Source: a bacterium
GTDB taxonomy: Bacteria > Patescibacteriota > Minisyncoccia > Portnoybacterales > GWB1-42-6
Length of the DNA: 64,000 nt
Direction: 5' to 3'
Assembly: GCA_043800535.1 (NCBI GenBank)
Contig: JAZDMV010000008.1
Coordinates: forward strand, 9,251 to 73,250
Shown: one piece after another, positions 3,346 through 63,324 of the stretch
Numbering within the stretch: the stretch's first letter is position 1
Layout: the number at the start of each line of letters is the position of its first letter
Notes under the pieces: model-generated
Database searches by the model: none
What the model was told of the DNA's origin: nothing
The model's input: only the letters and a program-made list of their open reading frames with translations
Position numbers and translations under genes: made by a program

Positions 3346-5361
3346 TTACAAAAGTGTTTGTGGGTCTATATCTATTTCCCAGCCGTGCGGCACAAACATT
3401 AAAAGCTTATTGCGGACACGCAGAAGGTTTTCATGTTCGTCTTGCTTTGCAAGCCAGTAGGGCTTTGCCTTGATGATTATCTGCCAGATGTATCTACTTT
3501 TTTGTCTGGCAATAAACGCGGGAACTGCGTCGCTTATCTCAAACACGGCTTCATTTAGAATCTTACCCCCACACTTTAAATCATGCAACTGCGTAGTCGG
3601 CGGTAAAATTGTTTTTTCATCATTAGATTCAATTGTGGCGGTTTGGTCTAAAAAGTGAGGGGGTTTACTTGTTTTTAGCTGTTGGGTCAATTTGGCAGAC
3701 AGAATTTTTGCCTCGTTAGCGGCTTTTGCCGGGTCGCGGTGGCGGAAAACAAGTTTTATTAACTGTGAGAAGGGCGGATATTTAAGGGCTTGTCTGGTTT
3801 CTATTTCTTGTTTATAAAAAGCGTCCCAGCGGCCGACAGCGGCATATTTTAACGCTGCGGCAGACGGATTATAAGTTTGAATGATAAAGGAACAGCCGGC
3901 TGTTTTTTGACTGACTTGTAATTTATGGTCTGGATTCCCGCTTTCGCGGGAATGACAGAAAAGCAGATTTTTTAATTGCGCTATCGTCTGAAACATTTTT
4001 TCGTCAGACCGAAAATCTGGCAAATGCATTAGGGTGTCAGCGGAAATTATTGCGACAAGCGGCACTTTGGGAATATCCGCATTTAATATCATTTGCGTGC
4101 CGATTAAAATGTCGGCCTTTTTTTGGCGGAATTCTTCAATAATTTTATTCTGCTGGATCGCGTCCGGCGCGGTATCGCTGTCCAGCCGCAAAATTTTGGC
4201 GTCCTTGAATAATTTTTGCGCTTCCTGTTCCACTCGTTGCGTCCCGGTCCCGAATGCCTTAATCCTGGAGCTCTGGCATTTTGGGCAAAGTGATGGTGGC
4301 TGTGATTTTTTTCCGCAGTGGTGGCAGATAAGGATCGGTTTTTGTAATTCACCGGATTTTATCAGGTGATACGTGAGTGGCGCCTCGCAACTGGCACATT
4401 TTTCAACATAGCCGCAGTCGCGGCACAAAACAAAAGTGGCCAATCCTCGGCGGTTGATGAATAGAATTACCTGTTGTTTATTTTTGAGCGTTTGCAGAAT
4501 TTCGTCTTGAAGCTGCCGGCTGAATATGGAAAAATTGCCGTCACGCAGTTCCTGGCGCAGGTCAATAATGGACGGAGCCAGACCAGGTACAGCATACCTT
4601 AGATCGGGGTTCTTCTCCGTCTGAGGGTCAGAAGAAAGATAATGTGATTCAATTGAAGGCACGATACTTTTTAGGATCAGCTTTGCATTAAAAATCTCTG
4701 CCAATTTTTTTGTTATTTCATGCACACGATAGTGGGGGAACATGTCCCATGAGTAATGTACAGGATTGGTTTCGTCTTCAATCGTAATTTTTTTAAGGTT
4801 GCAGAAGGGCGCAAAAACAGCAAGGCGCGTGCCGATAATTATTTGTGCTTGGCCCGAGGCAATCTTTTGCCAGGCCTGGGAAAGGTCTTTTGCTTTGAGG
4901 CCGCTATGGATTAGGACGCGGCGGGCTGGGGAAACCTTTTTTGCAAGTATGTCTATTTGCGACACAGTCGGCACGAGAATTAGTATCTGATTTTTATTTT
5001 CACGGTTTGCTGTTAACTGTTTACTGTTAACTTTTTTTGGCATCATCATTTTCAAAAACGCCCCAGGGGAAACAAAATAATACTCGCCCAGCCACAGGGC
5101 GAGTTCGATCTGCTGTTTTGTGAAAATGGGTGTTTCTGACAGGACTTTTTTTATGGGTCGCAATTCATATTCAGCGTCTTTTATTTCCATTTTGCGGCCC
5201 GCGATTTCGTGATTTGCAACAACTGCTGCTTTTTCCTGGCGGCGGCCAAGCGGCACTAAAACTAGACAGCCCACAGCTAAAACCTGGGCTGAAAAATAGC
5301 TAAGAGTTTGAGATCTCTGGAGGGGGGTTTTCGTTAATGGTACTACCTCGGCGAGATACAT
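3346..5361 (-). CDS. priA: Primosomal protein N' (replication restart helicase PriA)
   Basis: N-terminal 3'BD-like VPLGRR region, DEAH-type helicase core, Cys4 zinc-binding cluster (CRDCG...CASC...CHHCG...CPKC) and C-terminal domain. Carries an in-frame repeat-element insertion at 3929-3958. Confidence 0.9.
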   Translation of the reverse strand: MYLAEVVPLTKTPLQRSQTLSYFSAQVLAVGCLVLVPLGRRQEKAAVVANHEIAGRKMEIKDAEYELRPIKKVLSETPIFTKQQIELALWLGEYYFVSPGAFLKMMMPKKVNSKQLTANRENKNQILILVPTVSQIDILAKKVSPARRVLIHSGLKAKDLSQAWQKIASGQAQIIIGTRLAVFAPFCNLKKITIEDETNPVHYSWDMFPHYRVHEITKKLAEIFNAKLILKSIVPSIESHYLSSDPQTEKNPDLRYAVPGLAPSIIDLRQELRDGNFSIFSRQLQDEILQTLKNKQQVILFINRRGLATFVLCRDCGYVEKCASCEAPLTYHLIKSGELQKPILICHHCGKKSQPPSLCPKCQSSRIKAFGTGTQRVEQEAQKLFKDAKILRLDSDTAPDAIQQNKIIEEFRQKKADILIGTQMILNADIPKVPLVAIISADTLMHLPDFRSDEKMFQTIAQLKNLLFCHSRESGNPDHKLQVSQKTAGCSFIIQTYNPSAAALKYAAVGRWDAFYKQEIETRQALKYPPFSQLIKLVFRHRDPAKAANEAKILSAKLTQQLKTSKPPHFLDQTATIESNDEKTILPPTTQLHDLKCGGKILNEAVFEISDAVPAFIARQKSRYIWQIIIKAKPYWLAKQDEHENLLRVRNKLLMFVPHGWEIDIDPQTLL
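3929..3958. repeat. Copy A of the GGATTCC-hairpin-GGAATGACA element, inserted in frame in priA
   Basis: tctGGATTCCCGCtttcGCGGGAATGACAg; translates on the minus strand as CHSRESGNPD inside PriA. Confidence 0.75.
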
Positions 5362-6172
5362 AAAAATATATAACGAGAATAGTTATGAGAGTAAGTGAAC
5401 CGAGCACATCGTGCATAAGGTCATTTGCCGTATCAAATCCGTCGCCGAGGCGGTGAGAGCCAGTTACCAGGTCTTCAAAATACTCCGCTAATTCGTACAG
5501 CACACCAAAAAAGGCAGTTGTCATCCAGGTAATAAATCCGACACCGATTAATCCGACTTTGATTCTGTGGCTGTCCTCCAGCTTTTTGAAAACCCAGAAA
5601 ATTATTGCGGCGCAAGCGACTCCGCCGGCAAAAAAATGCATTATTTGGTCAAACCAATAAAGCTTGTCAAAAAGTTTATGCATGTCGCCAAGCGCATCGG
5701 CAAAAACAGCGGCGCTGGCCATAAGCATCAATAGTCCGAAAATTACCTGGCCGAAGATTTTCTTAGTATAATATAAAATCATTTCAAGTATAAAGCAAGA
5801 GAAAACGGTAGTTGCGATAAGTCCAGTCCAGGTATAATTAATCTGATGATGGACAAGGCCGACTAAATTTAGAAGTTCATAAAAAAGCAGTCCCCAGAGA
5901 AGGATGCGGCTTAAATAGATGAAGAATTTATCTGTTTGGCTCCAGGAAATAGAAATGGCTGTTGATTTTTCCTCTTGAATCAATTCGTCAATCGGCAGAG
6001 AAATTGGCTGGGCGATTATATTTTCTTGAACAATTTCGTTTTCCGGGGCGGAGGAAACAAACAACGCGGCGGACGTTTTTTCTTTTTCTTCCGGAGGAAT
6101 TAACGGCGGGCATGCCGTTCCGTCAAAGTCCGGAGATTTGTTTGAATTTAACATAAATTTTGATATACTCAA
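5300..6172 (-). CDS. Hypothetical integral membrane protein
   Basis: 290 aa with a low-complexity N-terminus followed by 6-7 TM helices and a C-terminal ELAEYFED...LGDGFDT acidic motif. Overlaps the priA start by about 60 nt. Confidence 0.5.
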   Translation of the reverse strand: MSISKFMLNSNKSPDFDGTACPPLIPPEEKEKTSAALFVSSAPENEIVQENIIAQPISLPIDELIQEEKSTAISISWSQTDKFFIYLSRILLWGLLFYELLNLVGLVHHQINYTWTGLIATTVFSCFILEMILYYTKKIFGQVIFGLLMLMASAAVFADALGDMHKLFDKLYWFDQIMHFFAGGVACAAIIFWVFKKLEDSHRIKVGLIGVGFITWMTTAFFGVLYELAEYFEDLVTGSHRLGDGFDTANDLMHDVLGSLTLITILVIYFYVSRRGSTINENPPPEISNS

Positions 6173-6277: not shown

Positions 6278-6859
6278 ATGAAGAAGCGAATTTTCATAGC
6301 GATCAACTTGTCCGAGGACCTAAGGAAAAAACTTCTTATATTTAGGGACAAATGGGAGTTTTTACCAGTGCGTTGGACAAAAAAGGACAGCCTGCATTTA
6401 ACGCTGGTTTTTATTGGTTACGTGGACGAAGAGGAAATTTATGAGGCTTGCCGGCTGGCCAGGGGAGTTGCGGCGCGGCACGAGGCGTTTGACATAGGTT
6501 TTGAAAGAATTTTATATGGCCCTCCTGCCCTTCGACAAGCTCAGGGTAAAGCACCGCGGATGATTTGGCTTGAGGGAAAAGCGAATGAAAAGTTATCAAA
6601 ATTAAAACTTGAACTCGATGATGTTTTAGCGTCTTCTGAAAGTTTACGTTCTTTCAGGCCGGAAAGACGTCCGTTTTCGCCGCATATCACTTTGGCCAGA
6701 ATGAATATGGACAAATGGCGTGACCTGTCAGAACAGCCGGCAATTGAGCAGGAATTAAAGGCAATTGTGCCGGTTGCGAGCATAGAAGTAATGGAAAGCG
6801 ATTTGAGATGTGATGGAGCGGAATACACGATATTGGAAAGCTGTCCGCTTGAAGGGTAA
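6278..6859 (+). CDS. thpR: RNA 2',3'-cyclic phosphodiesterase (2H phosphoesterase, LigT/ThpR family)
   Basis: Two H-x-T-x motifs (HLTLVF and HITLAR), about 190 aa. Confidence 0.8.
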   Translation: MKKRIFIAINLSEDLRKKLLIFRDKWEFLPVRWTKKDSLHLTLVFIGYVDEEEIYEACRLARGVAARHEAFDIGFERILYGPPALRQAQGKAPRMIWLEGKANEKLSKLKLELDDVLASSESLRSFRPERRPFSPHITLARMNMDKWRDLSEQPAIEQELKAIVPVASIEVMESDLRCDGAEYTILESCPLEG

Positions 6860-6888: not shown

Positions 6889-7054
6889 AGTTCTCGACGC
6901 GTTCCGCACGGTGCGGGGCTTGCTCGAACGATAACTCTTCGACAGGCTCAGGATAAAATTTATTCTTCGAGCCCTTCGACCCATTCGACTGCTGCTCAGA
7001 GTGGTGAGCAAAGTTGAACCATGGGTTCAGGGTAAACTTGAGTCGAGAAGTTGA
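6889..7054. repeat. Intergenic composite inverted-repeat element (TTCTCGAC / GTCGAGAA family), copy 1
   Basis: Shares AGTTCTCGACGCGT..GGGCTTGCTCGAA.GATAA and TTCGAGC...GAGTCGAGAAGTT modules with 56705-56826, in swapped order. Confidence 0.6.
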
Positions 7055-7789: not shown

Positions 7790-7948
7790 ATGACGTGGAT
7801 TTATTTGGTTATTGCGGGAGTGCTTGTTGCGGTAGGCATCTGGGTTGCGTTGCGCAAGGAAAGAAAGTCAGATGGAGAGAATCCGCCTGATTCTGGCTTG
7901 CCGCCGCAAAACCCGCCCGCAAATCCGCCGGATAGCCCGGGTTTATAG
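7790..7948 (+). CDS. Small membrane protein with proline-rich tail (52 aa)
   Basis: Unlisted ORF MTWIYLVIAGVLVAVGIWVAL... with a single TM and a PPxNPP tail. Confidence 0.25.
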   Translation: MTWIYLVIAGVLVAVGIWVALRKERKSDGENPPDSGLPPQNPPANPPDSPGL

Positions 7949-8027
7949 AATTTTGTAATAACTCTCTTGAGTGCAAGGTTCAGAAAAAGTGAACTAATTT
8001 TAGTTTTGCGGGCAAAAGAAATATTTT

Positions 8028-8723
8028 ATGGAAGCGCTCGTTCCAAATCGCGGGAAAAATTTAGTGGTTGCGGTAAAAAATGAAAAGTATGCAAGATTGC
8101 CGATAAAAACGCATGTCATTTCAAAAGATGATGATATTTTTAACGTGTGTCAGATATATGCACGGCCGCATTTGAAGGCGGGAGACATTCTGTTTATAAG
8201 CGAAAGAGTTGTAGCAATAACCGAGGGGCGCGCCTTTCCGATAAAAGATATAAAACCATCGAGCCTGGCAAAATTTTTGGTCAAATTCGTGCACAAGTCG
8301 CCATATGGCATAGGCCTGGGCAGTCCCTGGACAATGGAGCTGGCAATAAGAGAGGCAGGGAAATTCAGGATTATCTTGGCGGCCGCGATTGCGGCTTTCA
8401 CAAAACCCTTAGGAATAAAAGGTATTTTTTATAAGGTGGTTGGCAAAAATATAAACGCAATTGACGGACCGTGCGATTATACGCTCCCGCCTTATAACGA
8501 ATACGCAAAGCTCGGGCCGAAAAATCCGCAAAAATCAGCGGTCGAGATTAAGGAAAAGATCGGTTGTGAGGTTGTGATAATTGACGCAAACGATCTGGGC
8601 GTCGCGGTGCTTGGAAAATCAAATTCGCAGATTCAAGACGATTTTTGCCGGCAGGTTTTTTTGGATAATCCGTTGGGCCAGACAAACGAGCAGACGCCTC
8701 TTTGCATTGTCAGAAGAATATAA
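8028..8723 (+). CDS. CofE-like protein (F420-0:gamma-glutamyl ligase family)
   Basis: 231 aa; GDILFISERVVAITEGRAF and SPYGIGLG segments resemble the CofE/FbiB N-terminal domain. Confidence 0.5.
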   Translation: MEALVPNRGKNLVVAVKNEKYARLPIKTHVISKDDDIFNVCQIYARPHLKAGDILFISERVVAITEGRAFPIKDIKPSSLAKFLVKFVHKSPYGIGLGSPWTMELAIREAGKFRIILAAAIAAFTKPLGIKGIFYKVVGKNINAIDGPCDYTLPPYNEYAKLGPKNPQKSAVEIKEKIGCEVVIIDANDLGVAVLGKSNSQIQDDFCRQVFLDNPLGQTNEQTPLCIVRRI

Positions 8724-8727
8724 AAAG

Positions 8728-9363
8728 ATGCATAAGTTTAAGCTTTTATCGCCCGAACACAGAAACAGTGAGCGGGTGACAAATTTTGAGTTGCAGGAAA
8801 AGACGAAAAAACTGCGTTGGCGGAAGGCGGCGTTTCTGGCCGTTTTTTTTGTTTTGGCCGCAATTGTCCCTGTAAATTTAATTTTTCGGTCGGGGCAGGA
8901 CCTGGATATTGCTTATCAGTTGTTGCCTTTTGATGACGCTGTGAAAATTAAAGCGGCTCAGGTGCCTGAAATTGCAAAATTTCAAAAAAGAATTGAAATT
9001 GATTTGTTGGAGCAGCGGATGCGGCTATTTGAAGACGAAAAACAAATAGCAGAATATCCTATATCGAGCGGCAGGCGTGACAAGCAAACAAAGGCGGGCA
9101 GTTTTTCGATCATCAGCAAATATCCGATGGCTTTGGGCGGGATTCCTGGGCAGGCATGGAAGATGCCCTTTTTTATGGGAATTTATACGATAAAAGGCAC
9201 AGAAAATGGAATTCACGAGCTTCCTTTTATCAATGGCATTCGCGAATCAGCGCGCGATTTGGGGCATCCTGTCTCACACGGCTGCGTGAGGCTTGGTATA
9301 GGAGCGGCGGAGAAAGTATATAACTGGGCTGAACTGGGAACGCCCGTAATTATTTCGTATTGA
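8728..9363 (+). CDS. L,D-transpeptidase (YkuD domain) with N-terminal membrane anchor
   Basis: Catalytic HGCVRLG motif and an N-terminal TM. ATG at 8728 avoids overlap with the upstream ORF. Confidence 0.8.
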   Translation: MHKFKLLSPEHRNSERVTNFELQEKTKKLRWRKAAFLAVFFVLAAIVPVNLIFRSGQDLDIAYQLLPFDDAVKIKAAQVPEIAKFQKRIEIDLLEQRMRLFEDEKQIAEYPISSGRRDKQTKAGSFSIISKYPMALGGIPGQAWKMPFFMGIYTIKGTENGIHELPFINGIRESARDLGHPVSHGCVRLGIGAAEKVYNWAELGTPVIISY

Positions 9364-9416
9364 GAGGCGTATTTAAAAGTCATAAGAGCTGTCAGCAAGT
9401 ATCCACATTGCCCCGG

Positions 9417-9445
9417 TTGCCTAAGGCGATTTTTTTTATTATAAT
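9417..9445 (+). promoter_or_regulatory. Sigma-70-like promoter for the long leader of the cell-wall hydrolase gene
   Basis: TTGCCT, 17-bp spacer, then TATAAT. Start codon of the downstream gene is about 330 nt further on. Confidence 0.45.
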
Positions 9446-9777: not shown

Positions 9778-12564
9778 ATGATTTCTAACGGGGTAAAAAA
9801 CTTTAGCCGAGTTTTATTTTTTGTGCTCACTTTCAGCAGTTTTATTGTTGCTCCCCTGGCAGGCGGGCAGACAGAAAGTGCAGGACTTGTTTATGGCGAT
9901 TCTGATGTTCCGGTAATTCTGCCGCGTTCCGTCTGGGATAATTCGCCAGAGCTCAACGCGCTTTTGAACTGGTTGCCGCAGAACGAAACTTATCCGTCCG
10001 ACTGGCAGCCGATAGAACGGATTGTCGTTCATGATACCGCCACGCCCAATAATGATCCATTTCCGGCGATTGCCAGAATTCAAAGCATTTATCGTTTTCA
10101 TGCGGTCACTAATGGCTGGGGGGACATCGGCTATAATTATTTGATCGACCAGGATGGTAAGATTTATGAAGGCAGGTTTGGCGGCAACGGTTCGCGTGGC
10201 GCTCACGCTTTCAACAGTAAAATGAGCGAAAATTTTAATTATGGAAGCATCGGTATCGCGTTAATTGGCAGTTTTGCTTCAGAGCCGGTTAAGCCAATAA
10301 TGCAGCAGTCGCTGGAACGCCTTATTGGCTGGCTGGCGGCAGCAAACAATCTTGATCCGAGCCAAACGCAAAAAACATTTTCGATCTGGACTCCGTCAAC
10401 TAATAGTTTTAGCTTGTCTTATTCGGGGCCGGTTGTTGTTGGCCACAAAAATATTGACCCGGCAAAATCAGATCCGGGAACGCTGAATTTTGCCGTCGTT
10501 CGCCAGGCGGCTGCTCAATATAAACAGGAATATCTTGGCGTCGTCTATCAGGCACCTAACAGTTCTAAAATTTATCAGCTCGCCAACGGCACGAGCACTG
10601 TTTTTGAAACAGCTGCTGATCTTACAGCGCGGGGAAACACATATCAAAAAATAGCGGCCATAAACCAAAGCCAGCTTAACCTTTTTTCGGCAAGCAGATT
10701 TTTGAAAAATGTTGACGGCAGTTTGCTCAAATTCGCCGGTTCTTCCACAATTTATCTGATTGACGGCGGCAAAAAGCGAAATTTGTCAATCACGGCAAAA
10801 CAATTTAGCGCGCTGGGTTTCGGCTGGGCAAATGTCAAACAGGTGATGGAAAGCGAGCTTGCTTTATATCCAAACGGGTCTCCCATCGTTTATGGTCCTG
10901 ACAAAGAATTGTTGAAAGATGCCAGCGGCCGAGTTTATTATATTGAAAATGGTCGCAAGCGCTGGGTCACTTCCGGCGGGCTGTTTGGAGCACTTGGTTT
11001 GCAGTGGAAAAAAGTTAAAGATAAAACAGACGAATACATGTCTACGGTTTTGGAAGGCGCTAACATGAGCTATCCTTCAGGCACGCTCGCCAAAGCATCC
11101 GGGCCGACGATCTACCTGATAGAAGACGGCGTTAAGCGTGAATTTTTATCCGATAGATCATTTTCGGCGCTGGGTTATCAGAAGAGTAAAATTATCAGCG
11201 TCACAGACGATGAATTATCATTGTATCCCAGCGGCTCTTTTGTTCCGTATAAGAGTGGGACGCTGGCGAGGAGCCAGAATGAAAGCACGATTTGGCGATT
11301 AAGCGGGAACGAAAAGCAGTCATTTGTCTCTGCTGAAGAATTTTTAAATCTCGGATATCAGTGGAAAAATGTGATTTTTGTTTCCGGCGAAGAACTGGTG
11401 CGTTACGCGTCTGGCGGCGATGTAAAATATCCTGACGGCACATTGGTGCAGAAAAAGGGCGATTACAATGTATATCAGATAAAAAGCGGAATAGCCAGTT
11501 TGATTCCTGATGCGGCCACCTTTAAGAAATTGAAATTGTCCTGGGCCAAGGTTCTAAAAATAAGCGCCGATGATTTTGGCAAGCTTTTTGGTTCAATAGC
11601 ATTGGCGGTGCCCAGTGTTCTACCGCCGCAACCGGTGTCACCAGCAACTCCGACGCCAGCTGCCACGCAGCCTGCCTTTCCGGCAGGCGGGCCAAACATC
11701 CGCGTTGCCATTTGGAATGTGCCGTCAAGCCAAACAGAAGTTGTTTTTAGCGCAGGTGGTCCTTATGACGTTTTTGATAAAAACGGAAATTTAATTGCGA
11801 GCAAAGCCGCCGGCGAGCAGTATTCGGTAAACACGGCAAACCCGACCAATACCTTTGTCCGGCTTACTCCAAAATCAGGGACAATTCTTGAAGCGGTTTC
11901 TTATCAGGATATCGCTTCGTGGAAAACCGGTTTAAACTACAATAAATTCCGGGGCAATCTTGAATTGGTTTATTCGAATAAATCAGGCAAGCTCTGGATG
12001 GTCAACGAGTTGCCGCTTGAAGAGTACTTGAAAGGCGTGGCAGAAACAAATCAGGGGCTGGCAGTGGAGTATTTAAAAACAATGGCCGTGGCAGCGCGTA
12101 CTTACGCCTTGTTCTATTACAATCAGGGCGGCAAGTACGGCAGTGATCAAGTTTATCATATAACTAATACAACCTCTGACCAACTATACAAAGGATATGG
12201 CCGCGAGCCGTATGCTTCCGACATTGTGACAGCCGCGCAGGCAACCTTGGGCGAGATCGTGTCTTACAATAACGGGCCCGTTGTCACAGCTTATAGCTCC
12301 GGCGCCGCGGAGCTTATGTCCGCTGGTTCCAGGTCCGCCTGTTCTGTCTGGGGCGGCAAATACTGCCAGGCGGGATTTGAATATTTAAAGGGCGGGGTTA
12401 AAGACCCCGAAGGCACAACATACAGCTATGACGTTTGTGGAAGCGGCAATCATTGTGTCGGGTTGTCGGGCGCCGGAACTCGGCGATTCGCCGCCCTCGG
12501 CAAAACATACAAAGAAATTTTGACGTATTATTATTTGGGGACGGAGGTTAAGAAAATCTATTAG
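9778..12564 (+). CDS. Secreted multidomain peptidoglycan hydrolase: N-acetylmuramoyl-L-alanine amidase (Amidase_2/PGRP) + 5 tandem ~70-aa repeats + SpoIID/LytB domain
   Basis: Signal peptide; amidase_2 segment (HDTATPNN...GWGDIGYNYLID). Five internal repeats (TIYLIDGGKKRNLS...LALYPNGS). C-terminal SpoIID-like region (AVAARTYALFYY...GYG...). Confidence 0.8.
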   Translation: MISNGVKNFSRVLFFVLTFSSFIVAPLAGGQTESAGLVYGDSDVPVILPRSVWDNSPELNALLNWLPQNETYPSDWQPIERIVVHDTATPNNDPFPAIARIQSIYRFHAVTNGWGDIGYNYLIDQDGKIYEGRFGGNGSRGAHAFNSKMSENFNYGSIGIALIGSFASEPVKPIMQQSLERLIGWLAAANNLDPSQTQKTFSIWTPSTNSFSLSYSGPVVVGHKNIDPAKSDPGTLNFAVVRQAAAQYKQEYLGVVYQAPNSSKIYQLANGTSTVFETAADLTARGNTYQKIAAINQSQLNLFSASRFLKNVDGSLLKFAGSSTIYLIDGGKKRNLSITAKQFSALGFGWANVKQVMESELALYPNGSPIVYGPDKELLKDASGRVYYIENGRKRWVTSGGLFGALGLQWKKVKDKTDEYMSTVLEGANMSYPSGTLAKASGPTIYLIEDGVKREFLSDRSFSALGYQKSKIISVTDDELSLYPSGSFVPYKSGTLARSQNESTIWRLSGNEKQSFVSAEEFLNLGYQWKNVIFVSGEELVRYASGGDVKYPDGTLVQKKGDYNVYQIKSGIASLIPDAATFKKLKLSWAKVLKISADDFGKLFGSIALAVPSVLPPQPVSPATPTPAATQPAFPAGGPNIRVAIWNVPSSQTEVVFSAGGPYDVFDKNGNLIASKAAGEQYSVNTANPTNTFVRLTPKSGTILEAVSYQDIASWKTGLNYNKFRGNLELVYSNKSGKLWMVNELPLEEYLKGVAETNQGLAVEYLKTMAVAARTYALFYYNQGGKYGSDQVYHITNTTSDQLYKGYGREPYASDIVTAAQATLGEIVSYNNGPVVTAYSSGAAELMSAGSRSACSVWGGKYCQAGFEYLKGGVKDPEGTTYSYDVCGSGNHCVGLSGAGTRRFAALGKTYKEILTYYYLGTEVKKIY

Positions 12565-14070: not shown

Positions 14071-15228
14071 ATGTTGATCGGCATTGATGCACACTGGCTG
14101 GAGGGGAATCGCACCGGCGTTGGCCGGTACCTTTTTAATTTACTCAAAGCTTGGTCCCGTTCCGAATCTGACATACTCTCCCGTGCTCCCGAGCACGGGA
14201 GAGTATGTCAGGTAAAGTTTGTATTGTATTTTAAGGACGAGATACCGAAAGATTTGCCGCAGTCGTCTTTGTTTAAGGTAATGCTTCTAAATGTGAAAAG
14301 CACGGCTAAATTCATCCATTGGGACTTGTGCCGGGCGGCTTGCAAGGATAAGGTGGATGTCCTGTTTTGTCCCGCATATATTGCGCCGCTATTTTATAGC
14401 GGTAAAATCGCGTTAACGCTCCATGACATAATCTATGAAACGCATCCGGAATGGTTTGAATGGAAAAGCTGGGCAGATAAGATTTTGCTCAAATGGGTTT
14501 CAAAGATCTCGGCGCGCAAGGCGGCTTTAATTTTTACCATTTCTGATTTTTCGCGGCAGGAAATTATCGAATATTTTAGGATCAAAGCAGAAAAAATAAA
14601 GGCAATCCCTTTGGCAGGAGACATCGGGGAGGTAGCGGAAGGGGGAAGCGATGAGATACTGAAAAATCAATTCGGCATCAAAGACCGGTTCGGATTTTAT
14701 GTCGGCTCGATTTTTAACCGGCGGCATTTGTCCGAAATAATTGACGCGTTTTCCAGAATTGCGCAGGAAAGATCAGATTTTCAGCTGTTGCTGGCTGGTA
14801 AAGACCATACAAAGCCCGCACAGGACATAAGAGGCAAGGCCGAAAAGGTAAATAAAAAATTGGAGCGGCATGCGATTTTAAGGGTTGATTTTGTGAACGA
14901 TCATGAGTTAAAATTATTGTATAACGCATGTGCGTTTTTTATTTACCTTTCCGATTACGAAGGGTTTGGATTGCCACCCTTGGAAGCGATGGCCTTGGGC
15001 GCGCCAACCATAACCAGCGATGCAACTTCGCTAAAAGAAGTGGCTGGTTCGGCCGCGCTGTTGGTGAAAGAAAATTCAGATACAGAAGAAATTTATCAGG
15101 CGATGAAGAAGATTATAGACGAGGAAGCATTGCGGTCGCGGCTGATAGAAAAAGGCAAGGAGCAAGCGGCGAAATTTTCCTGGAAAAAATGTGCGGAGGA
15201 GACATTATCAGAATTATTAAACGCGTGA
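14071..15228 (+). CDS. Glycosyltransferase family 4 carrying an in-frame palindromic-repeat insertion
   Basis: GT4 N-terminus MLIGIDAHWLEGNRTGVGRY and C-terminal EGFGLPPLEAMALGAP motif. The 42-nt palindrome at 14169-14210 is translated as DILSRAPEHGRVCQ. Confidence 0.8.
   Translation: MLIGIDAHWLEGNRTGVGRYLFNLLKAWSRSESDILSRAPEHGRVCQVKFVLYFKDEIPKDLPQSSLFKVMLLNVKSTAKFIHWDLCRAACKDKVDVLFCPAYIAPLFYSGKIALTLHDIIYETHPEWFEWKSWADKILLKWVSKISARKAALIFTISDFSRQEIIEYFRIKAEKIKAIPLAGDIGEVAEGGSDEILKNQFGIKDRFGFYVGSIFNRRHLSEIIDAFSRIAQERSDFQLLLAGKDHTKPAQDIRGKAEKVNKKLERHAILRVDFVNDHELKLLYNACAFFIYLSDYEGFGLPPLEAMALGAPTITSDATSLKEVAGSAALLVKENSDTEEIYQAMKKIIDEEALRSRLIEKGKEQAAKFSWKKCAEETLSELLNA
14169..14210. repeat. 42-nt perfect palindrome (CATACTCTCCCGTGCTCC family), copy 1, in-frame within the GT4 gene
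   Basis: TGACATACTCTCCCGTGCTC-CC-GAGCACGGGAGAGTATGTCA; 20+2+20 nt, 14 codons. Confidence 0.9.
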
Positions 15229-24593: not shown

Positions 24594-24613
24594 AATCCTT
24601 AGAAGCTTACTAG

Positions 24614-24651
24614 ACATACACTCCCGTGCTCCCGAGCACGGGAGTGTATGT
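24614..24651. repeat. 38-nt perfect palindrome, copy 2 of the CATAC(T/A)CTCCCGTGCTCC family
   Basis: ACATACACTCCCGTGCTCCCGAGCACGGGAGTGTATGT, 21 nt after the stop of the upstream gene. Confidence 0.9.
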
Positions 24652-24689
24652 GCGATTGGTGTTTTGATGGGAAATAGGGAAAAAATCGT

Positions 24690-31241: not shown

Positions 31242-31309
31242 GTCATTCCGTGCCTGACACGGAATCCAGGTTTGTGGGCCTGGATTCCGGCTTTCGCCGG
31301 AATGACAAC
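31242..31309. repeat. Copy B of the modular AATGACA element (TIR TGTCATTCC...GGAATGACA)
   Basis: TGTCATTCCGTG-cctga-CACGGAATCCAGG-tttgtgg-GCCTGGATTCC-GGCtttcGCC-GGAATGACA; sits between murG and the next gene. Confidence 0.8.
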
Positions 31310-33686: not shown

Positions 33687-33789
33687 CATGCCGGACTTGC
33701 TTGTCCTGCCGCAGCTTTAGCGGAGGCGGAATCCGGCATCCAGAATAAAAAGATGAACCTGGATTCCGGCTTTCGCCGGGGAATGACAA
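33687..33789. repeat. Copy C of the modular AATGACA element (long form)
   Basis: CATGCCGGA-CTTGCTTGTCCTGCCGCAGCTTTAGCGGAGGCGGA-ATCCGGCATCCAG ... CCTGGATTCCGGCTTTCGCCGGGGAATGACA in the ftsW-murD spacer. Confidence 0.8.
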
Positions 33790-36301: not shown

Positions 36302-36393
36302 TAATTCCCGTGCCGCGCCCTTCCGAAGCTTTGAGCAAAGGAGGGAAAACGGGAATCCAGAATCTGGATTCCGGGTCAAGCCCGGAATGACAC
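36302..36393. repeat. Copy D of the modular AATGACA element (long form)
   Basis: AATTCCCGTG...GAAGCTTTGAGCAAAGGAGGGAAAACGGGAATCCAGAATCTGGATTCCGGGTCAAGCCCGGAATGACACA. Confidence 0.8.
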
Positions 36394-39883: not shown

Positions 39884-39994
39884 TGTCATTCCGTGCTTGC
39901 TTGCCCGTCCGTAGCTTTAGCGAAGGAGGGACACGGAATCCAGCCAGCCTGTTGCGGCAGATGGATCCCGCATCAAGTGCGGGATGACAGGAAT
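39884..39994. repeat. Copy E of the modular AATGACA element (longest form, about 110 nt)
   Basis: TGTCATTCCGTG-CTTGCTTGCCCGTCCGTAGCTTTAGCGAAGGAGGGA-CACGGAATCCAG...GGATCCCGCAtcaagTGCGGGATGACAGGAAT; begins 8 nt upstream of the ybaK-like start codon. Confidence 0.85.
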
Positions 39995-48015: not shown

Positions 48016-48044
48016 CGGGCTGTAGGCGATCGTGAAATGCTATA

Positions 48045-48086
48045 GTGCATACACTCCCGTGCTCCCGAGCACGGGAGTGTATGCAC
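48045..48086. repeat. 42-nt perfect palindrome, copy 3
   Basis: GTGCATACACTCCCGTGCTC-CC-GAGCACGGGAGTGTATGCAC, 30 nt after the malic enzyme stop. Confidence 0.9.
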
Positions 48087-48098
48087 GAATAGAAACAT

Positions 48099-54943: not shown

Positions 54944-54962
54944 ATTATTGCAAAATGTAATT

Positions 54963-55004
54963 TGACATACTCTCCCGCGCTCCCGAGCGCGGGAGAGTAT
55001 GTCA
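54963..55004. repeat. 42-nt perfect palindrome, copy 4
   Basis: TGACATACTCTCCCGCGCTC-CC-GAGCGCGGGAGAGTATGTCA between the ABC ATPase and permease genes. T/A to C/G compensatory pair relative to copy 1. Confidence 0.9.
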
Positions 55005-55017
55005 TGTTTGAGTTTAT

Positions 55018-59860: not shown

Positions 59861-59892
59861 AATCTGGATTCCCGCTTTCGCGGGAATGACAG
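59861..59892. repeat. Copy F of the GGATTCC-hairpin-GGAATGACA element (short form)
   Basis: AATCTGGATTCCCGCtttcGCGGGAATGACAG; identical core to the priA-internal copy. Confidence 0.8.
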
Positions 59893-59926
59893 ATTGGAGG
59901 GGTAATGGCAAAATATCATTGGATAT

Positions 59927-63287: not shown

Positions 63288-63324
63288 GGATTCCTCCCCC
63301 GCGAATGCGGGGTCGGAATGACAG
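63288..63324. repeat. Copy G of the GGATTCC-hairpin-GGAATGACA element (variant inner hairpin)
   Basis: GGGATTCC-TCCCCCGCgaatGCGGGGTC-GGAATGACAG. Confidence 0.75.

Follow-up and report, generated by a model that had tools for sequence, protein, structure and literature searches.

The 64,000 nucleotides of DNA analysed here (positions 9,251 to 73,250 of contig JAZDMV010000008.1, assembly GCA_043800535.1, referred to below as the window) come from a Portnoybacteria-like candidate-phyla bacterium and include a minus-strand gene for a homologue of PriA that carries a short hairpin repeat within its coding sequence. An earlier note, made from the sequence alone, had described this repeat as a dispersed palindromic element lying within the priA open reading frame (ORF) and translated in frame as CHSRESGNPD, and the sequence, the ORF and the other copies of the repeat all agree with that description. 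Positions 3929-3959 of the window read atggTCTGGATTCCCGCTTTCGCGGGAATGACAGAaaag, in which the repeat unit is TCTGGATTCCCGCTTTCGCGGGAATGACAGA, and the element is located wholly within the ORF (3346-5361, minus strand). Its coding-strand codons (TGT CAT TCC CGC GAA AGC GGG AAT CCA GAC) specify PriA residues 469-478 and occupy positions 3928-3957; the coordinates proposed earlier, 3929-3958, describe the element correctly but are shifted by one base relative to the codons. By inspection of the sequence, five of the element's six reading frames contain no stop codon, including all three in the orientation present in priA. No frameshift is seen at the element in the one assembly, and the reading frame is intact on both sides. 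The ORF product is 100% identical to a protein from a metagenome-assembled genome (MAG) named primosomal protein N' at NCBI. That protein derives from the same assembly and thus does not confirm the sequence independently, as reads or a second assembly would.

The repeat does not form a novel family; the element corresponds to one that has been published. Neisseria species carry a 28-nt repeat, the Neisseria Transformation Sequence (NTS), with the consensus CGTCATTCCCGCGMAVGCGGGAATCYRG, which includes the older dRS3 repeat ATTCCC-N8-GGGAAT and alongside which a degenerate Ssn-related motif (SRM) has been defined (PMC11893778, Nat Commun 2025). According to that study, SsnA, a small GIY-YIG protein, both binds and cuts the NTS hairpin solely as single-stranded DNA, with the trinucleotide that lies upstream of the palindrome required for cleavage and the C directly after the palindrome required for binding. 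The typical arrangement is NTS-ssnA-NTS, and the system is present in many phyla; it was described from Neisseria and mostly Pseudomonadati, and candidate-phyla bacteria and coding-sequence copies are absent from the account. The authors accept as an NTS any sequence with at most one mismatch to the 28-nt consensus, and the priA copy at 3930-3957 falls within this threshold, matching at 27 of 28 positions. It also fits the SRM pattern (HGTCWYN(0-2)YYVSBRHN(0-5)WNVSBRGN(0-2)RNCYNB). Both determinants critical for Ssn are intact in the priA copy, namely a GTC lying upstream of its palindrome and the C that follows GGGAAT directly, and judging from these the copy is an apparently competent candidate Ssn site. 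The element is predicted to fold into a hairpin both as single-stranded DNA (-11.1 kcal/mol, z=-5.3) and as RNA (-17.3 kcal/mol, z=-4.9). The consensus match, the fit to the SRM pattern and the flanking of an Ssn-like gene by the same repeat in another genome (see below) together place the element, by its sequence, in the known NTS/SRM family. At the gathering threshold, Rfam recognizes only two tRNAs and assigns the element to no family. Chance similarity was considered as an origin of the peptide and rejected, as the DNA is identical to that of other copies and close to the published consensus, while orthologues lack the peptide.

The repeat is widely distributed. A scan with the exact 25-mer GGATTCCCGCTTTCGCGGGAATGAC, using one genome per species, returned at least 120 loci in Alpha-, Beta-, Gamma- and Deltaproteobacteria, Chloroflexota, Planctomycetes, Acidobacteria, Nitrospirae, Omnitrophota, Bacteroidetes and several lineages of the candidate phyla radiation (CPR). 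Isolates among the matches listed include Povalibacter, Devosia, Sphingopyxis and Dyella, and three of the genera named in PMC11893778 (Povalibacter, Devosia and Rickettsia) are also among the matches. Across these loci conservation extends about two bases beyond the 25-mer on each side, and the copies often form inverted pairs 40-90 nt apart. The 25-mer is also frequently followed by short tandem echoes of its own 3' half, such as GGGAATGACgaggtggtGGGAATGACgaggtggtGGGAATGAC in loci L116, L078 and L107. Ssn-like genes adjoin the repeat in four of the loci carrying the 25-mer. When one of their products, the Omnitrophota protein P0121 (locus L043), was used as a query, it matched a protein from Candidatus Wildermuthbacteria (Parcubacteria) with 78% identity, and at the corresponding locus (L127) the Ssn-like GIY-YIG gene (8001-8300) is flanked on both sides by a 28-mer identical to the priA copy. 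This locus comprises positions 7902-8473 of JACPMM010000029.1, from a Candidatus Wildermuthbacteria MAG, and from the copy at 8275-8302 the nuclease gene takes its last eight codons (STGFPLSRE) and its TGA stop, a second case of a coding copy. No literature report was found for the translated peptides or for palindromic elements in candidate-phyla bacteria.

Nine members of the family occur in the window in total (Table 1), with common ends (TGTCATTCC...GGAATCCAG) and variable inner stems. The copy at 59863-59893 is identical to the priA copy over 31 nt (100%), and variant copies are found at 31279-31309 and 33758-33788. The 20-nt palindromic core occurs three times with up to three mismatches, compared with 0.03 occurrences expected from shuffles, and the SRM pattern has five matches, the priA copy included, compared with 0.11 on average and never more than one in 100 dinucleotide shuffles. 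Inner stems vary in a compensatory manner (CCCGC/GCGGG, CCGGC/GCCGG, CCGGG/CCCGG and CCGTG/CACGG). Among eight window copies, three inner-stem pairs are altered on both sides, a covariation whose statistics are modest at this number of sequences; 85% of cells are paired in the true register versus 17-50% in shifted registers, and TGTCAT and TCC are invariant. The inverted pair downstream of murG, in which 31242-31267 is forward on the plus strand and 31280-31307 forward on the minus strand, folds at -41.8 kcal/mol (z=-7.9). At most three of the nine members lie in ORFs, though ORFs of at least 100 amino acids cover approximately 81% of the window, and two of those three are in 5' extensions of ORFs that have no Pfam match. 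The intergenic SRM matches lie 10-36 nt past the stop codons of murG, murD, the DUF763 gene and one unnamed ORF. The other family members in the window avoid genes, which points to selection against coding insertion. The forward strand of seven of the nine members is on the minus strand, and the plus strand is G-rich across the whole window (GC skew). A second repeat family in the window consists of near-perfect palindromes of 42-49 nt (GACATACTCTCCCGTGCTCCCGAGCACGGGAGAGTATGTC), mostly intergenic, at 14165-14213, 24608-24656, 48041-48089 and 54959-55007; these resemble only loosely the published NTSvar (CGTCATACTCGGG...CCCGAGTATC; PMC11893778).

Table 1. Features of the priA gene and members of the NTS/SRM family in the window (positions are those of the window; a point marks features given without a single strand)
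Feature	Position	Strand	Basis or context
priA homologue, 671 aa, predicted PriA-family pseudohelicase	3346..5361	-	ORF, Pfam, TIGR00595, structure matches
Remainder of extra segment, HKLQVSQKTAG (residues 479-489)	3895..3927	-	DNA comparison; boundaries ambiguous by a few codons
NTS/SRM hairpin repeat TGTCATTCCCGCGAAAGCGGGAATCCAG (coding strand)	3930..3957	-	Consensus match, SRM pattern
dRS3-type palindromic core ATTCCC-N8-GGGAAT	3934..3953	.	Core scan, published dRS3
Former motif VI helix FQTIAQLKNLLF, residues 457-468	3958..3993	-	HMMER alignment to 6dcr, 8fak
Cys-rich zinc-binding region, all eight cysteines retained	4276..4425	-	Alignment of 97 homologues
Degenerate motif II, IEDET for IDEEH	4768..4782	-	Alignment
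18-residue linker (residues 108-125) between the 3'BD and lobe 1	4987..5040	-	E. coli PriA alignment
Inverted SRM hairpin pair, BIME/MITE-like	31242..31307	.	Just downstream of murG
SRM copy, inner stem CCGGC/GCCGG (compensatory relative to CCCGC/GCGGG)	33759..33788	-	Between murD and ftsW
Family member with different inner stem GGG/CCC	36366..36391	-	Beside partial inverted partner 36340-36360
Two members: 57-nt long form 39885-39941 (+) and SRM match 39961-39989 (-)	39885..39989	.	Census, SRM pattern
Identical NTS/SRM copy	59864..59891	-	36 nt downstream of the DUF763 gene stop codon
Family member with longer inner stem	63288..63322	-	Census, folding

The protein that carries the insert is recognizably a PriA. 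It matches the Pfam families PriA_3primeBD (PF17764; 3'BD in Table 1), Helicase_C (PF00271) and PriA_C (PF18074), with a weak match to PF18319 (20.2 bits versus a cutoff of 26), and it scores 353 bits against TIGR00595, for which the cutoff is 230. The RecA-like lobes are present, and the E. coli and Klebsiella PriA structures match with E values of ~1e-52. An AlphaFold2 (AF2) model of the protein, for which 97 homologues were used, has a predicted local distance difference test (pLDDT) score of 90.7 and a predicted TM score (pTM) of 0.90, and its comparison with E. coli PriA (8fak_H) by Foldseek gives TM scores of 0.76/0.79. Eight cysteines of the zinc region inside lobe 2 (C313, C316, C322, C325, C346, C349, C359 and C362) are invariant in the 97 homologues, as are many other positions, and the gene neighbourhood LigT-DUF2238-PriA-Fmt is kept in relatives. 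The priA ORF overlaps the preceding DUF2238 ORF (5300-6172, minus strand), its start codon at 5361 being located 62 nt upstream of the DUF2238 stop. At L002, which is syntenic, 95 nt separate the DUF2238 and priA genes.

The motifs required of a helicase of superfamily 2 (SF2) are missing from this protein. The linker between the 3'BD and lobe 1 stands in for a stretch of approximately 140 residues in E. coli PriA that contains the winged-helix domain together with the strand-loop-helix of Walker A. Residues 110 to 125 of the window PriA align to residues 123 to 209 of an E. coli construct from which the winged-helix domain is deleted and residues 102 to 247 are spanned in the full-length protein; the top sequence match is such a construct (6dcr), and the Walker A columns of the alignment are empty for the window PriA. 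The earlier note had placed motif VI (QxxGRxGR) at LQVSQKTAG...IIQTYNP, but alignments with E. coli PriA and with canonical Parcubacteria PriAs put it at AQLKNLLF (461-468), N-terminal to the insert. The position of the motif is occupied by QLKNLLF, a placement supported by alignment with PriAs that have the canonical QVAGRxGRG (P0112, P0113, P0116, P0117 and P0119), and an AF2 helix at 452-464 covers part of the former motif VI region. The arginines of the motif, which had been called unrecognizable, are indeed absent.

This degenerate form is not peculiar to the window. Among the 120 closest homologues, GxGKT, DEEH and QVAGRxGRG are found in only five, and those have all three. Walker A, the winged-helix domain, DEEH, the SAT motif and motif VI are missing from every close homologue, whether it bears an insert or not. 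Of the best 150 representatives of clusters at 50% identity, 83 lack all three motifs and 50 possess all three. Since SF2 motifs I, II and VI are missing, the window protein is a PriA homologue but is predicted to be a pseudohelicase. The conserved cysteines, the synteny and the clade-wide occurrence of the motif-less form indicate a conserved pseudohelicase rather than a decaying gene, and pseudogene status was rejected based on conservation and fold. There is precedent for such a protein in Deinococcus radiodurans, whose PriA is without ATPase and helicase activity yet binds DNA and DnaB (PMC4504706, PLoS One 2015). The same report states that the helicase activity of E. coli PriA is not strictly needed for viability, and the description of priA as an essential replication gene in the earlier note was therefore overstated. 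No literature report was found of PriA pseudohelicases, or of PriA at all, in candidate-phyla bacteria.

The insert is recent, as its full 31-nt identity to the copy at 59863 indicates, and lineage specific. It is missing from the closest orthologues, P0002 (71% identity), P0003 (66% identity, with LigT-DUF2238-PriA-Fmt synteny) and P0004, which is what makes it lineage specific; the earlier suggestion that both the insert and the degenerate motif VI might be lineage specific holds for the insert, whereas the degenerate motif VI is clade-wide and unlinked to it. Orthologues that lack the repeat and possess the same peptide, which would have spoken for chance similarity, were not found: the orthologues are without the peptide. 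Comparison of the DNA with that of the two nearest orthologues (L001 and L002, the latter syntenic) shows that the window priA has 63 extra nucleotides (21 codons), of which the repeat accounts for 30. The ten-residue insertion proposed at the outset thus corresponds to the decapeptide encoded by the repeat, while the lineage-specific segment is 21 codons long. A small palindrome AACAGCCGGCTGTT at 3891-3904 is unique in the window and does not help to trace where the remainder came from, and at the empty sites of L001 and L002 neither a palindrome nor a shared target motif can be seen. In the alignment, the former motif VI helix FQTIAQLKNLLF is followed directly by the insert CHSRESGNPDHKLQVSQKTAG and then by CSFIIQTYNP. 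As motif VI corresponds to QLKNLLF just before the insert, the insert fills the place of the lost GRxGR loop. Mapping onto the structural model, a check proposed in the earlier note, locates residues 471-490 in a coil with a block-mean pLDDT of 64-65, between the lobe 2 helix 452-464 and the strand 491-496.

Other members of the clade have acquired extra sequence at the same place. When the residues between the invariant P448 and Q495 were counted by alignment columns in 119 homologues, 27 had 11-59 extra residues at the former motif VI loop and 92 had none. Repeat-derived DNA is present in at least five of the inserts at this loop. P0028 has a chain of SRM-type hairpins there, and P0005 a degenerate forward-plus-reverse SRM pair with the same starting codon as the window insert. 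P0040 carries two copies of a related hairpin, one at the former motif VI site and the other where motif III used to be. In P0042 the former motif VI site holds a terminal-inverted-repeat element (GTCATTGCGAGCG...CGCTCACAATGAC) together with a PPxFKKGGLGG element, which is found again close to the 3' end of that gene. In P0036, the linker preceding the C-terminal domain contains a composite SRM (SVIPAKAGIQDSGSRVKHGMA). The copies in P0040 are at 10700-10750 and 11399-11488 of locus L126, and those in P0042 at 8681-8869 and 9409-9444 of locus L125.

Taken as a whole, these observations favor, with a probability of about 0.78, the view that an NTS/SRM hairpin became established in frame within a structurally permissive loop of PriA, which had already turned into a pseudohelicase. 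Loss of ATP hydrolysis would have freed the former motif VI loop from constraint and left insertions there nearly neutral, and the insert was probably tolerated because the PriA of this lineage had already lost its ATPase motifs. The element itself would be a selfish or neutral passenger, spread either through an Ssn-linked single-strand mechanism like those of REP/RAYT or IS200/IS605 or through recombination between copies. Survival would be limited to insertions that preserve the reading frame, which would be easily achieved because the element is open in five of its six frames. PriA would still function as a platform for fork recognition and helicase loading, by analogy with the Deinococcus pseudohelicase.

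Several points weigh against this interpretation. The insert is known from one assembly only, 33 of the 63 extra nucleotides are without an assigned origin, and the loss of ATPase activity is predicted from motifs. No established mode of movement exists for NTS/SRM repeats, even in Neisseria, and no ssn homologue was found in the 64-kb window with two regular expressions or in tblastn searches with two Ssn-like proteins. In addition, at least nine of the 27 insert-bearing orthologues have inserts that begin at nearly one codon with TGTCAT (Cys-His; the inserts start CH, CR or H-S) and in the same orientation. Simple tolerance is therefore an incomplete account, and there is room for targeting or conversion.

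The alternative that follows from this last point, which is unlikely but carries real weight, is that SRM-type hairpins preferentially target, or have long resided at, the former motif VI site. It could take the form of site- or strand-specific insertion, or of an ancestral copy overwritten time and again through gene conversion by other SRM variants, perhaps started by Ssn cleavage of the hairpin in single-stranded DNA. The inserts of the window, P0005, P0028 and P0040 start T|GTC(A/G/C)T on the coding strand, their starting points being at most one or two codons apart, and those of P0042, P0044, P0046 and P0068 start GTCAT in another frame. Moreover, all five SRM pattern matches in the window are on the minus strand and co-oriented with the adjacent genes, and open frames alone would favor the forward orientation just 3:2. 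Against a preferred site, insertion points vary by up to a few codons, insert-free and insert-bearing orthologues are interleaved in the similarity ranking, unrelated repeat families such as PPFxKGGLGG are found at the site too, and the empty sites of L001 and L002 show no shared target. The counts also overstate how many events took place, since the orthologues are not independent of one another phylogenetically. A bolder proposal is that in candidate-phyla bacteria SRM/Ssn units behave as active single-strand mobile elements, repeatedly homing to or converting the same few PriA loops with a fixed strand orientation. The loops concerned would be those of the former motifs III and VI and the linker that precedes the C-terminal domain, with the dead ATP site as a preferred landing pad. 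This proposal is speculative and rather improbable; if it were true, a nuclease-linked hairpin repeat would generate diversity of protein loops in reduced genomes.

It is also conceivable that the hairpin has been co-opted, either as a structure for Ssn cleavage, recombination or regulation or, at the protein level, as a functional loop. The determinants for Ssn binding and cleavage (GTC and C) are kept, the hairpin is stable, and NTS repeats in Neisseria modulate the integration of transforming DNA (PMC11893778). The content, length and family of the inserts, however, vary freely among orthologues, most of which (92 of 119) have none, and this variation makes co-option very improbable. The loop is modelled as a coil of reduced confidence, and a promoter and terminator scan of priA gave no signal near the insert exceeding that expected from shuffled sequence. 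An assembly artefact at the repeat or a decaying priA pseudogene might be imagined from a single assembly, from the reputation of repeats as classic sites of assembly error and from the missing catalytic motifs, but is barely credible given that both flanks are collinear with priA in one frame without a stop codon or frameshift over 2016 nt, and that the motif-less form is full length in at least 83 clusters (50% identity) with invariant zinc cysteines, a confident fold and conserved synteny.

In its relation to the published system (PMC11893778), the window element is like NTS, dRS3 and SRM repeats in its near-complete consensus match, its dRS3 core, its oriented non-palindromic flanks and its hairpin. 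It shares with them a multi-copy, usually intergenic occurrence and a frequent arrangement in inverted pairs, with an identical 28-mer flanking an Ssn-like gene in another Parcubacteria genome. It differs from published NTS/SRM copies in its candidate-phyla host and in being translated inside a gene, and no ssn gene was found in the window. The authors of that study themselves likened the Ssn system to REP/RAYT and IS200/IS605. Like REP elements and BIMEs, the window repeats are short imperfect hairpins with an orienting asymmetry, mostly located just past stop codons and often in inverted pairs, and as in REP/RAYT systems a small nuclease gene is flanked by repeats. The partner, however, is a GIY-YIG nuclease and not a Y1 transposase, and whereas REPs are species specific, the 25-mer is identical across phyla. 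Transposition of SRMs is a proposal only.

Rickettsia palindromic elements (RPEs), reportedly described by Ogata and coworkers in 2000 (Science) and 2002 (Genome Res), are said to be selfish repeats inserted in frame in genes of reduced genomes. RPEs are roughly 100-150 bp long and form a sequence family specific to Rickettsia. The parallel with RPEs drawn in the earlier note is apt as shared in-frame behavior only: in both cases a palindromic repeat is carried in frame, a loop peptide is added without destroying the protein, and inserts differ among orthologues. The window element, in contrast, is 28-31 nt long and belongs to the pan-bacterial NTS/SRM family, and membership in the RPE family is very unlikely on the grounds of size and NTS identity.

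The window PriA resembles that of D. radiodurans (PMC4504706) as a degenerate PriA homologue; retained DNA binding, retained interaction with DnaB and a presumed role in replication restart are features of the Deinococcus protein. In Deinococcus PriA, Walker A and B are degenerate through substitution (GKT to GRT). In the window PriA, the alignments point instead to deletion of the whole P-loop segment together with the winged-helix domain, and to loss of motif VI as well.

The repeat family (2025), the in-frame palindromic inserts of Rickettsia and the Deinococcus PriA pseudohelicase are already known. What is new is the combination of a translated NTS/SRM site in a candidate-phyla gene, a large clade of PriAs lacking the P-loop, and dead loops that act as sinks for repeats. 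The NTS/SRM-Ssn system is thereby extended to candidate-phyla bacteria, with a copy that retains the published recognition determinants inside a translated gene. Predicted PriA pseudohelicases are likewise extended beyond Deinococcus to a large Parcubacteria radiation, in which the P-loop segment is lost and the DNA-binding, zinc and C-terminal modules are kept; a P-loop-less PriA bears on replication restart and helicase loading in minimal genomes. The clade may be viewed as a natural experiment in which, after the loss of catalysis, former catalytic loops became sinks for selfish hairpin DNA. Signature peptides of this repeat in annotated proteins (CHSRESGNP, VIPAKAGIQ, SFPRKRES and WIPAFAGMT) are relevant to annotation pipelines and to motif calls based on alignments.

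The LigT homologue encoded near priA (ORF 6278-6859, plus strand) has an in-frame insert of its own, the six residues ALRQAQ at 6524-6541, which are missing from five orthologues. The DNA encoding ALRQAQ is another dispersed repeat, CTTCGACAAGCTCAGGGTAAA, also present at 6937 and 35819, and three LigT orthologues have different inserts at another site in the protein.

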